Shown piece by piece: positions 27,001 through 30,000 of a DNA stretch of 64,000 nt. Source of the stretch: Holophagales bacterium. GTDB taxonomy: Bacteria; Acidobacteriota; Thermoanaerobaculia; Multivoradales; UBA5704. The first letter of the stretch is position 1. The number at the start of each line of letters is the position of its first letter. Position numbers: made by a program. The stretch is taken from contig JANNIH010000072.1 in assembly GCA_031404815.1 (NCBI GenBank), forward strand, positions 12,100 to 76,099. Reading direction: 5' to 3'.

Positions 27001-30000
27001 CTGGAAGAGCAGGGCCTGGCCGCGATCGAGCGGATCGAAACCGCGAACCGGGCGCTCACCGAACTCCGGGAGAGCTTCCGCGAGATCGACGCGCAATACG
27101 CCGCCGAAGCCGCGAAGTGGGAGCGCGAGAAGCCCGGCATCGCGCGCGAAGCCAACGCGATCCGCAAGAAGCTCGTCGAGCTGCGCGCCCAGCTGCCCAA
27201 GGGGGTGCTCGCGCTGTTCGAACGGATCCGCGAGCGTTACGCGGGCGCGGGCATCACCGAGGTGCTCAAGTTCGAGCGGATCGGCAGCAGCCAATACGAA
27301 TGGCACTGCAGCGCCTGCAACTTCCGGGTCCGCCCGCAAGTCGTGGTCGAGATCCGCACCCAAGGAACGCTCGTCCAGTGCGACAGCTGCAAGCGGATTC
27401 TGGTCGTCGAGCCCAGCGCTTCCTGAGGACCAGGTGATCGACCCCGAGCCGGAGTCGGGGCTTCGCGAGTCGATCGCCTCGGTCGAGGAGCGGATCGTCT
27501 CGGCCTGCCACCGCGTCGGCCGTGACCGAGCGTCGGTCACGCTGGTCGCGGTGACCAAGACCCATCCGCCCGAGACGTTGCGGGCGGCGTGGGATCTGGG
27601 GCTCCGTCTGTTCGGCGAGAATCGCGTCCAGGAAGCGGCGACCAAAGTGCCGCTGCTGCCGGCCGAAACCGAATGGCACCTGATCGGGCCGCTCCAGTCG
27701 AACAAGGTGCGGCAAGCGCCCGACCTCTTCCGGACCATCCACTCGATCGACCGAGAAAAGATCGCCCACGCGCTCGACGCCGAAGCCGCCCGCCGCGGCA
27801 TCGTGATCGACGGCTTCCTCGAAGTGAACTCCGGCAACGAGGTGACCAAGCACGGCTTTCCCCCCGAAAGCTTCCTCGCCGCCGCCCCGGAATTCCTACG
27901 CCTCAAAAACCTCCGCATCCGCGGCCTGATGGCGATCCCCCCCTTCGGCCGCGCCGCCGAAGAATCCCGCCCCTACTTCCGCCGCCTCCGCGACCTCCGC
28001 GACCAGCTCGCCACCCACCCCGACGCCACCCACTTTTCCGGCTGGCTCTCGATGGGCATGAGCGACGATTACGAGGTCGCAATCGAAGAGGGGGCGACGC
28101 ACGTGCGGATCGGGACGGCGATTTTTGGGCGGCGGTAGGGAGAGTCGGATGGGTGCATGCCTGCGCGCCCCGCGAGGGTTTGAGATCGCGGGGTTGATGA
28201 CGCGCGCCCGGCCACCCCGCGAGGGTTTGAAAACCCTCGCTAGATTACGTCGTCCCTACGGGACGAGATGCTGGCTTCGTCGAGGAGGCGAGAGGATGGG
28301 GTGCATGCCGACTGGCAATGTGCGGCTTTCTTTTCCCCTAGGGAACGTCCCGCCAGGGACGTCGTTACGTAGCGAGCGGTTTCAACCGCTCGCGGGGCCG
28401 CGAGATTCGAAAAAGTCAATAGCCATGCTAACATGCGCGCCCCTTTAGGGCTCTTGCGCCCTCTGGAGAGCGCCATGGCGATGCCCCCTTTGACCCCGCT
28501 GGATGTGCAGCGGATGAAGTTTGCGACCAAGATGCGCGGGTACGACGCCCGGGAGGTCGAGGACTTTCTGGCTCTGGTCGCCGAGGAGTTGGCGCAGCGG
28601 ATCGGCCAGGTCGATAAGCTGGAGCGCGAGGCGAAGTACTACCGCCAGCGGGTCGAGGAGGCCGAGGAGCGCGAGCACCAGTTGCAGCAGACGCTGCTGC
28701 GCGCGCAGAAGGTGGCCGACGAGATCACCGCCAACGCCCGCCGCGAAGCGGAGCTGATGGTGCGCGAAGCGGAGAACGTGGCCGATCGCGTGGTTCATCA
28801 GGCGGTCGAGCAGACCACCCGGATCGAGGCCCGCGTTCACGAGCTGCGCACCATGAGAAAAGAGCTGCAGCACAAATTCCGCAACACGATCGATCTGTTC
28901 CAGCGCATCCTCGAAGCCGAGATGGAAGAGGAGCGCGTCCCCAGCGGCGGCACCGTGATCCAACTGCCGCGCAAAAAGCGCGAGGCTTAAAGCGCGCGAT
29001 GTCCGGGCCGAGCCCGGCGGGCGACCTGCGTGAGATCCCGGCGCCGCTTGCCGAGCGGCTGTTCCCTGATTTCGCGCGCGAGGACCTGACGCTCGACTCT
29101 TTTCCCAACGGCGCCCGCTCGCTCGTGCTCGCCCGCCTGCTCGAAGACGGCGACCGCAACGACCTCGCCTGGTTGTTCGGCGCCCTGCCGGAAGGGGAGA
29201 TCGCAGCCTGGCTTGGCGAGCACGGCGGGCGCAAGCTGTCGCGCCGGAGCGCCGCGTACTGGCAGACCGTGCTGGGAATCCCTGCGGGGGCGCCCGCCGC
29301 GGGGCGCGCGGATCTCTGGCCGCTGTGAGATCCTCGCTCCCTGCCATGACCTCCACCACCGCTCTAGCCCGACTCCTCGCCCTCGATTTCCGGGAGTCTT
29401 TGGCCCGCCCAAGCGCCGCGCTCATCGCCCGTTTCGGCGCGGCGGAGTGGGGGGCTGACTTCTACCTCGCCGGGTCGGCGGCGCTCGCGCTCTACCTCGG
29501 CCATCGGCCGGTGCGCGACCTCGACCTGATGAGCAACGCGAACCGCCTGACGCCCCCGGATCGGCGCGACCTGCTCGGCGCGCTGCTCGACATCGAGCCC
29601 GGCACCGAGGTCGAGACGGCGCGCGACGGCTACCTGTTCGTCCGCATGCCGGGGGCGGTTCCGGAAGCTGGCGGGGTCGGCGTCCGCTTCTTCTACTACC
29701 CCTATCCGCTCGCCGATCCGTTCGAGGAGATCGACGGTCTGTCGGTCGCCTCCGCCGTCGATCTCGGACTCATGAAGCTCGGCGCGATCATCAGCCGCGG
29801 CACCCGGCGCGATTTCATCGACCTCTATCTCCTCTGCCGCCGGCTGCCGCTTGAAGAGCTGCTCGCGCGCGCCGAAGACAAATTCGGCCACGTGCGCGAC
29901 TTTCCGCTCCAGGCGCAGAAAGGTCTCGCCGATTTCTCCGCGGCAGAGGACGAGCCGATGCCGAAGCTCGCGCAGCCGTTGGCGTGGGACGAGGTCGAGA

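Follow-up and report, generated by a model that had tools for sequence, protein, structure and literature searches.

A hairpin-dense element fills most of the spacer between yggS and divIVA in a 64,000-nucleotide stretch of a Holophagales genome (hereafter the window; contig JANNIH010000072.1, positions 12,100 to 76,099). This element, at 28140-28398, is very probably what decay has left of a small mobile element, present once or as two tandem copies, as judged by alignment to an intact relative, and its hairpins are in all likelihood cis sites of a Y1 transposase. The hairpins belong to Acido-Lenti-1 (Rfam RF01687). We put at about three in four the probability of a wider reading, in which Acido-Lenti-1 is not a small RNA (sRNA) but the cognate DNA module of transposase subclass TnpAY1 1.2, read on the strand opposite to that annotated in Rfam. 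The module and its transposase would together constitute a widespread intermediate between insertion sequences and REPtrons, the systems built on repetitive extragenic palindromes (REPs), giving rise to inverted doublets, arrays of ~70-nt period and solo copies in Acidobacteriota, the Planctomycetes–Verrucomicrobia–Chlamydiae (PVC) group, Bacteroidota and other phyla. This provides a testable function for an Rfam family left as an orphan "sRNA" since 2010, suggests re-annotation of both its type and its strand, and would supply the cis-acting partner of a Y1-transposase subclass that was reported without one.

The Spacer Hairpins are Acido-Lenti-1 Modules

The spacer comprises 336 nt (28139-28474) between a YggS-family gene (27434-28138; PF01168 match, with the name YggS taken from homologue annotation) and divIVA (28475-28990; PF05103, DivIVA, match). 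A sequence-only reading of this DNA had named both flanking genes, and had described at least five perfect stem-loops, two direct repeats and an inverted copy of one hairpin between them; the Pfam matches agree with the gene names, and every one of the structural features is present in the spacer, as follows.

28220-28239, + strand: stem-loop, hairpin 1 of module A, CGAGGGTT-TGAA-AACCCTCG
28250-28266, + strand: stem-loop, hairpin 2 of module A, TCGTCCC-TAC-GGGACGA
28345-28362: stem-loop of module B, ACGTCCC-GCCA-GGGACGT
28372-28393: stem-loop of module B, GCGAGCGGTT-TC-AACCGCTCGC
28168-28175 and 28186-28193: fifth stem-loop, inverted repeat I11, CCCCGCGA/TCGCGGGG
28159-28202 and 28206-28249: direct repeat D1, 44 nt, 73% identity
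28151 and 28299: direct repeat D3, GGGTGCATGCC, 11 nt, exact
28215-28257 versus 28355-28397: inverted repeat I1, 43 nt, 81% complementary

The 15-mer GGATGGGTGCATGCC, flagged in the same reading, recurs in the spacer with one extra G. The structure of the spacer is beyond chance: folded as RNA, the whole spacer gives z = -4.7 on the + strand and z = -5.8 on the - strand, and folded as DNA, the doublet formed by the two modules (28215-28398) is a single long hairpin of -53 kcal/mol (z = -6.6), with 0 of 200 shuffles as stable.

A covariance search, which the sequence-only reading had proposed, assigns these hairpins to a known family. RF01687 matches 28220-28265 on the + strand with 40 bits, above the gathering score of 37 (local-search E = 1.3e-7), and an inverted copy at 28346-28392 on the - strand with 27.9 bits (local-search E = 2.4e-4). 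Model R1, a covariance model that we built solely from 48 of the seed sequences published in 2010, with the published structure, scores module A at 39.2 bits. The layout given by Rfam (an 8-bp hairpin with a 4-nt loop, CUA, a 12-nt linker and a 5-bp hairpin) is found here, with all 13 pairs present in both window copies of the cmscan alignment and one extra loop base in copy B; in each module an 8-bp hairpin with CTA at its foot (TAG on the opposite strand) is joined through ~8 nt of linker to a 5-bp hairpin. Two further Rfam matches in the spacer, to epsC (16 bits) and TLS-PK6 (14 bits), fall far below their gathering scores and were dismissed as chance.

Acido-Lenti-1 was described from 89 copies, mostly in Lentisphaera araneosa and often in arrays, and was rated "probably RNA" from its covariation, with its function unknown (Weinberg et al. 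2010; PMC2864571). The motif carries the Rfam type "Gene; sRNA" and is noted as "sometimes near group II introns" (Rfam; Weinberg et al. 2010). Nothing intron-like was noticed near the window copies, in an analysis that made no aimed follow-up of this association. The modules described here share with the family its two-hairpin architecture, linker and conserved CUA, an acidobacterial source (in this case Thermoanaerobaculia, going by the names of close YggS homologues) and the occurrence of copies at several places and in arrays, as in the 2010 seed. The difference lies in what they appear to be: a probable sRNA according to Rfam and the 2010 description, but here the inverted repeat, or REP-like unit, at the ends of an element with a Y1 transposase, where the constraint appears to act on DNA and on the strand opposite to that annotated. 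In a literature search whose coverage was incomplete, we provisionally found no functional discussion of Acido-Lenti-1 beyond its 2010 description. The Lentisphaera arrays of the 2010 seed themselves have periods of 74, 110, 115 and 192 nt.

The Window Element is Probably a Deleted Copy of a Transposon Intact in a Relative

The yggS loci of the closest relatives (L003 to L006), obtained via their YggS proteins, reveal several states of the same spacer. In L004 (YggS 89% identical to that of the window) 73 nt separate yggS from divIVA, and in L005 (81%) 124 nt. In L003 (89%) the interval grows to ~2.2 kb and holds Acido-Lenti-1 modules, a 150-aa PF01797 (Y1_Tnp) gene, a PIN/Phd pair and a repeat-rich open reading frame (ORF), while in L006 (82%) a PIN-toxin gene remnant directly follows yggS before the contig ends. 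The YggS proteins of L003 and L004 are 98% identical, and filled and empty states of the spacer therefore differ between near-identical genomes. The yggS–divIVA spacer is an insertion hot spot among these close relatives, being empty in L004 and L005, occupied by transposon debris in the window, by a transposon plus a PIN/Phd toxin–antitoxin pair in L003, and by a PIN remnant in L006.

The L003 spacer contains an intact unit. Its transposase gene, tnpA (11003-11455), stands between a + module (10917-10963) upstream and a - module (11471-11517) downstream, and an additional - module (10803-10849) lies behind the relic of a transposase 3' end. The intact unit thus comprises an A module, a gene for a 150-residue transposase and a B module in ~612 nt, with terminal inverted repeats of ~50 nt; the inverted flanks align over 53 nt, and the unit ends are CCGCGAG...CTCGCGG. 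The closest homologues of the transposase (87% protein identity) sit in A-tnpA-B units that are likewise ~612 nt long and share 84-89% nucleotide identity with L003 10912-11525. Two of these, L208 and L209 (the latter sharing its sample of origin with the empty-site contig L004), lie downstream of a gene read as release factor 2 (prfB), and a third, L207, has an RPE65-family gene nearby. Comparison of these sequences indicates that the intact unit is mobile and is found in three contexts. Neither the window copy nor L003, L207 or L208 shows a target duplication at its junctions, and no common or conserved target sequence (tetranucleotide) was recognised among the few junctions available.

Aligned to these units, the window element and its border resolve into the following parts.

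28140-28162, + strand: leader remnant 1 with a start-codon relic, GGATGGG-TGCATGCC, ATG at 28157-28159; direct repeat of 28288-28311 (D3)
28163-28214, + strand: linker with a reduced hairpin, CCCCGCGA-gggtttgaga-TCGCGGGG, at 28168-28193; within the 81% alignment to L003
28215-28266, + strand: left terminal module A, with hairpin 1, CTA foot, 8-nt linker and hairpin 2; Acido-Lenti-1 copy
28267-28311, + strand: leader remnant 2 through ATGCCGA, ATG at 28305-28307, reading frame deleted beyond; also aligns to L207 and L208
28312-28341, no strand: 30-nt filler between the deletion point and module B, without alignment to L003
28342-28398, - strand: right terminal module B, inverted Acido-Lenti-1; on the + strand hairpin 2', GTAG, hairpin 1', CGGGG
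28399-28474, + strand: native divIVA upstream block, GAAAAAGTCAAT..CATGCTAA.AT.., common to the window, L003, L004 and L005; outside the element

The stretch 28163-28311 is 81% identical to L003 10858-11009 and spans the linker, module A, the leader and the first codons (ATGCCGA), and the second D3 copy (28288-28311) aligns to the 5' leader and ATG of L003 tnpA. At the other end, 28342-28397 matches the two L003 B modules with identities of 96% and 91%, and module B is also 96% identical to the right end of L207. A tblastn search for TnpA across the 64-kb window gave no match: an HUH/Y1 TnpA is encoded by the L003 element and not by the window copy, from which the gene is deleted. Alignment to the L003 element at both ends, together with the absence of TnpA, marks the window copy as an internally deleted, non-autonomous doublet. 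Upstream of it, 28140-28214 would be debris of a second, tandem unit, in which the reduced hairpin (28168-28193) looks like the left and right termini of an element joined together.

The 184-nt doublet (28215-28398) has the features of a MITE (a miniature transposable element with inverted repeats), namely the lack of a transposase, inverted ends CCCCGCGAG...CTCGCGGGG, leader relics and similar doublets elsewhere; the target duplication typical of many MITEs was not seen at it. The doublet resembles a REPIN (an inverted pair of REPs) or a MITE. Two of the origins offered by the sequence-only reading were thus essentially right: it had considered a family of repetitive extragenic palindromes, and the hairpins do belong to a dispersed family, Acido-Lenti-1; and it had considered the remnant of a miniature inverted-repeat element, which describes an inverted doublet left from a Y1-transposase element that is intact at the same site in L003.

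Its third suggestion, a structured regulatory RNA for divIVA, fared otherwise. A cis-regulatory leader or attenuator of divIVA, or of a yggS–divIVA operon, would fit the position of the element immediately upstream of divIVA and its strong structure on both strands. The element is, however, absent from L004 and L005, with their spacers of 73 and 124 nt, and L003 has ~2.2 kb of mobile material at the site. The divIVA-proximal block is constant among the window, L003, L004 and L005, whereas the sequence 5' of it differs, and because this shared block lies downstream of the insertion, a conserved divIVA leader is ruled out. The modules also occur beside unrelated genes, and a scan of 27900-28700 for sigma-70 promoters and intrinsic terminators found no sites. 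We therefore regard a regulatory leader of either kind as extremely improbable. The shared block and the short spacers of the relatives also dispose of the idea that the element occupies the place where sepF or ylmG would be expected: no gene is missing between yggS and divIVA, since relatives run from yggS through 73 or 124 nt directly into divIVA. The local meaning of the element is accordingly small, the spacer holding ordinary transposon debris rather than a division regulator. The relic is probably inert; if it did influence the expression of yggS or divIVA, that would be incidental.

Acido-Lenti-1 Often Accompanies TnpAY1 Subclass 1.2 Across Phyla

The L003 protein matches PF01797 (87 bits) and the NCBIfam model of IS200/IS605 transposases, NF033573 (72.4 bits against a cut-off of 55). 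Its best PDB matches are Deinococcus/ISDra2 TnpA, to which the HUH and Y...Q motifs align, and in an alignment of 28 homologues (A2) residues H55, H57, W95, Q96, Y115, Q119, H122 and H123 are invariant. The tyrosine motif is of the type Y...Q..HH and not Y...NP. Subclass 1.2 of TnpAY1 was characterised by a median length of 148 aa and the motifs DH[IV]H, WQ and Y---Q--HH, with few copies per genome (1.7) and low identity among those of one genome, and was listed without associated hairpins or REPs (Quentin et al. 2018; PMC6006769). With 150 aa and the same signature, the L003 transposase is by its motifs a member of subclass 1.2 and a close cousin of IS200/IS605 TnpA, an assignment made by the Table 1 motifs and length of that study. 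The members encountered here, in Acidobacteriota, Planctomycetota, Verrucomicrobiota and other phyla, differ from the published description in being flanked by the Acido-Lenti-1 module. No assignment of hairpins to subclass 1.2 was found in our literature search, a provisional result given its incomplete coverage, and the link between Acido-Lenti-1 and a Y1 transposase provisionally appears to be new.

To test this link, we searched R1 against 80 loci from GTDB species genomes, chosen solely for a transposase homologue at 40-50% identity and drawn from Acidobacteriota, Planctomycetota, Verrucomicrobiota, Bacteroidota, Zixibacteria, Sumerlaeota, Desulfobacterota and others. The R1 counts at these loci rest on the best 150 matches (E < 5e-4). 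An R1 match lies within 300 nt of the transposase gene at 49 of the 80 loci, and the density of hits is 4.3 per kb within 100 nt of tnpA compared with 0.009 per kb at 2-5 kb. At 29 of the 80 loci the nearest matches on the two sides form an inverted pair, 25 in the -/+ and four in the +/- arrangement, the latter being that of L003 and the window; an inverted pair is the commonest arrangement. Read from the flank inward, the commonest order is hairpin 2', 8 nt, TAG, hairpin 1', ~25 nt, hairpin 2', ~10 nt and then the gene. Two further approaches gave similar pictures. An independent, crude rule-based scanner returned 149 matches, compared with 13 in dinucleotide shuffles, with the same clustering, and inverted flanks scoring at least 30 were found at 39 of 75 testable loci versus 16 in a direct-orientation control, including at loci that R1 had missed.

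Some subclass 1.2 genes are accompanied by module arrays of at least four (up to 4-8) copies, as at L054 4172-5986, L025 4611-5551 and L064 4778-5822. In these three arrays the modules recur with a period of ~70-107 nt and switch orientation, as in bacterial interspersed mosaic elements (BIMEs). Integron attC sites and CRISPR-like arrays were considered, given the regular arrays of the 2010 seed, and rejected on layout, as periods of ~70-200 nt are too short to accommodate cassettes and the gene that the modules enclose encodes a Y1 transposase; no search for integrase or cas genes was made.

A precedent seemed to be offered by the TIRtrons, in which tyrosine-transposase genes (TIRYT) are flanked by long, partly palindromic inverted repeats that form moderately abundant families, with examples that include Acidobacteria (Di Nocera et al. 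2013; PMC3733652). The concept of inverted repeats flanking a tyrosine-transposase gene is shared, but the acidobacterial TIRYT proteins (Additional file 5 of that study) carry the class-2 motif Y...NPV, and no link to Acido-Lenti-1 was made there. The class-2 motifs in the protein alignment place TIRYT in a different transposase group, and it was rejected as a precedent.

The Constraint Appears to Act on DNA Hairpins

The sequence-only reading had asked for compensatory changes, and these are plentiful. In an alignment of 136 distinct matches, which was fitted to the model and hence leans toward structure, 98.5% of cells hold a standard pair, and both sides have changed in 12 of the 13 stem pairs. 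G-U pairs amount to ~0.4%, and one-sided (G-U) changes are almost absent; this lack of G-U is not a product of model fitting. Hairpin 1 is followed by an invariant CTA (87-100% on the Rfam strand), so that the opposite strand has TAG at its foot. The fourth foot base varies: GTAG makes up 28% in alignment A4 and 23% in alignment A5, and the window has GTAG in module B and CTAG in module A. Across the seed and both hit sets, mismatches are A-C in 55 cases and G-T in 16. Because A-C on the Rfam strand corresponds to G-T on the TAG-foot strand, the strand that folds, if only one does, would be the one opposite to the Rfam annotation. This strand preference is suggestive only, as the copies are related. 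Taken together with the inverted pairs and the transposase link, the covariation is most simply read as a constraint that acts on DNA hairpins.

The same data bear on whether these loci are genes for a trans-acting sRNA, as Rfam classifies them, in which the hairpins matter as RNA. That classification draws on the RF01687 match above the gathering score, on the strong covariation and on the "probably RNA" rating that covariation earned the motif in 2010. The covariation is, however, near-purely Watson-Crick, as a DNA palindrome gives, and its mismatches favour the strand opposite to the Rfam orientation. Copies stand in both orientations, in inverted pairs and arrays and close to a transposase gene; their presence or absence differs between near-identical genomes; and the yggS–divIVA locus offers neither promoter-like nor terminator-like sites. 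These data make an sRNA very improbable.

Copies Without a Transposase

Among metagenome contigs, an exact-pattern scan for the window's own subfamily found it on at least 120 contigs, and a transposase homologue is present in the stored stretch of ~5 among the 120 listed. A census of the best 150 R1 matches, on 100 of these contigs, comprises 30 divergent, 11 convergent and eight tandem pairs and 61 solo copies, so that 41 transposase-less inverted doublets occur among these matches. The divergent pairs mostly have a narrow gap of 84-122 nt, which is what the common arrangement would give once its gene is removed, and the convergent pair is the arrangement of the window doublet. Doublets of the window's subfamily without a transposase were found at two places in L150 and also in L106 and L172. 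One of them (L150b) keeps the last codons of the transposase gene. Since both it and the window doublet keep transposase relics, these two arose, as far as their sequences tell, through internal deletion of a full element.

Within the window, the searches for individual motifs that the sequence-only reading had suggested gave nothing further: hairpin 1 has no second copy in the 64 kb, and GGATGGGTGCATGCC, with up to two mismatches allowed, occurs once, while 11 of 100 shuffles gave at least one match. Despite these null searches, the covariance models found two more diverged members of the family.

31390-31433, + strand: solo module of another sequence subfamily, R1 20.9 bits, E = 0.002; inside ~72-88 nt absent from relatives
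40804-40853, + strand: solo module of a third subfamily with a longer linker, Rfam 28.5 bits, R1 28.9 bits, E = 1.9e-5

The first lies in the spacer between an amidohydrolase gene and an ICMT gene (31367-31480), which measures 114 nt in the window, 25 nt in L004 and 37 nt in L003. The insert at 31.39 kb is apparently bounded by ATCC on both sides, a single case in which the borders could be a target or a duplication. The second stands between a Fic-type toxin pair (39742-40699) and a GNAT acetyltransferase gene (40911-41474). The Fic-domain gene has an overlapping upstream ORF of 121 aa without a Pfam match, which may encode an antitoxin.

Between Insertion Sequences and REPtrons

By analogy with IS608 and ISDra2 TnpA and with E. 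coli TnpA-REP, the hairpins would extrude in single-stranded DNA, for example at replication forks. A dimeric Y1 transposase would bind them and cleave near the foot, where TAG would be the likely guide, recognition or cleavage element. On the same analogy, doublets without a transposase would move only if a cognate transposase comes in trans, and the window element would work like a REP/REPIN or an IS200-derived MITE.

Insertion sequences of the IS200/IS605 type classically lack terminal inverted repeats, and the hairpins at their ends lie on one strand. The element described here resembles them (IS200, IS608 and ISDra2) in a TnpA that passes NF033573, in its size of ~600 nt with a single gene and hairpins at both ends, in the lack of a visible target duplication and in having transposase-less derivatives, comparable to PATEs and MITE derivatives. 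It differs in its inverted-repeat ends of ~50 nt, each with two hairpins, and because of these long inverted ends it is not a classical IS200/IS605 element.

REPs, BIMEs and REPINs with their REP-associated tyrosine transposases (RAYT, or TnpA-REP) reportedly make up the REPtrons, in work by Nunvar (2010), Bertels and Rainey (2011), Ton-Hoang (2012) and Quentin et al. (2018). The elements described here resemble these systems in several respects: extragenic palindromes that are short, GC-rich and carry a conserved foot (here NTAG; GTAG in module B), inverted doublets, arrays, inverted copies flanking an HUH/Y1 gene, and stems that covary between lineages. On the other side, the unit here is of 46 nt with two hairpins rather than one, the first base before the TAG foot is variable, the transposase is not a class-2 RAYT, and the whole unit also moves with its gene. 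As the transposase model is not matched and the foot is only partly GTAG, this is not a classical RAYT-REP system.

Within the mobile-element reading there is evidence for both an insertion sequence and a domesticated REPtron. In the latter case REP/REPIN-like hairpins would be maintained by a single-copy host transposase, which would make the window doublet a REPIN and not an internally deleted insertion sequence. Pointing that way are the BIME-like arrays of up to 4-8 modules with a ~70-nt period at some transposase genes, the more than 95% of subfamily copies without a nearby transposase among the metagenome contigs listed, the GTAG foot of module B, and the low copy number (1.7) and within-genome identity reported for subclass 1.2 (Quentin et al. 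2018). Pointing away from it, the whole A-tnpA-B unit behaves like an IS in that it stands, at 84-89% identity, in three contexts; transposase relics persist in the window doublet and in L150b; and the L003 protein reaches 30.5 bits against the cut-off of 80 for the REP-associated NCBIfam model (NF047646, REP_Tyr_transpos). We consider a domesticated REPtron possible but somewhat doubtful. Inverted two-hairpin ends combined with an IS200-like enzyme suggest a position between classical single-strand insertion sequences and domesticated REP systems, and an intermediate of this kind bears on the origin of REPs.

Several observations weigh against the mobile-element reading, in which the hairpins are cis sites of a Y1 transposase. 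At 31 of the 80 transposase loci there is no strong R1 match within 300 nt, so that the link is frequent but not universal at the sensitivity of R1, and modules may face either way relative to the gene. The - strand module of the window, at 27.9 bits, falls below the Rfam gathering score of 37, and the copies of the family could be counted in the 64-kb window, where they occupy three sites. The inverted ends are unlike those of classical IS200/IS605 elements, whose Y1 enzyme uses one-strand hairpins, and the role of the TAG foot, like binding and cleavage, is drawn from analogy. Finally, the modules may be transcribed as part of neighbouring mRNAs.

Assembly Breaks and Neighbouring Genes

Assemblers commonly break at repeats, and short-read assemblies seem to fall apart at these modules. 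Independent Logan assemblies made from the same sample (SRR20217199; the end of L001 and the start of L002) break at window-equivalent positions 28274 and 28369, which flank the spacer between the two modules, and their contigs thus end inside the element; in the metagenome set, 22 of 150 module matches lie within 150 nt of contig ends. This is of practical consequence for short-read data in which these modules occur.

Downstream of divIVA, 28999-30068 holds an ORF of 109 aa without a Pfam match and an AbiEii-family nucleotidyltransferase toxin gene. The pair is kept in L002 to L005, making this type IV toxin–antitoxin-like pair a stable neighbour of divIVA in the lineage. Upstream of yggS, a tRNA gene (26565-26637; 71 bits) overlaps the start of the longest ORF of a CT398-like coiled-coil/zinc-ribbon gene (26629-27426). 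The gene probably starts further downstream than this ORF does; its product has 247 aa in relatives compared with 265 aa for the window ORF. In L003, between the PIN/Phd pair and divIVA, a 176-aa ORF without a Pfam match (12282-12812, - strand) contains an array at 12498-12763 in which a 21-nt unit (consensus ATCACTCAAGTCCCCCAAGAA) recurs ~10 times and then gives way to 2.6 copies of a related, inverted-looking 21-nt unit; iterons and a repeat protein are both possibilities for this array.

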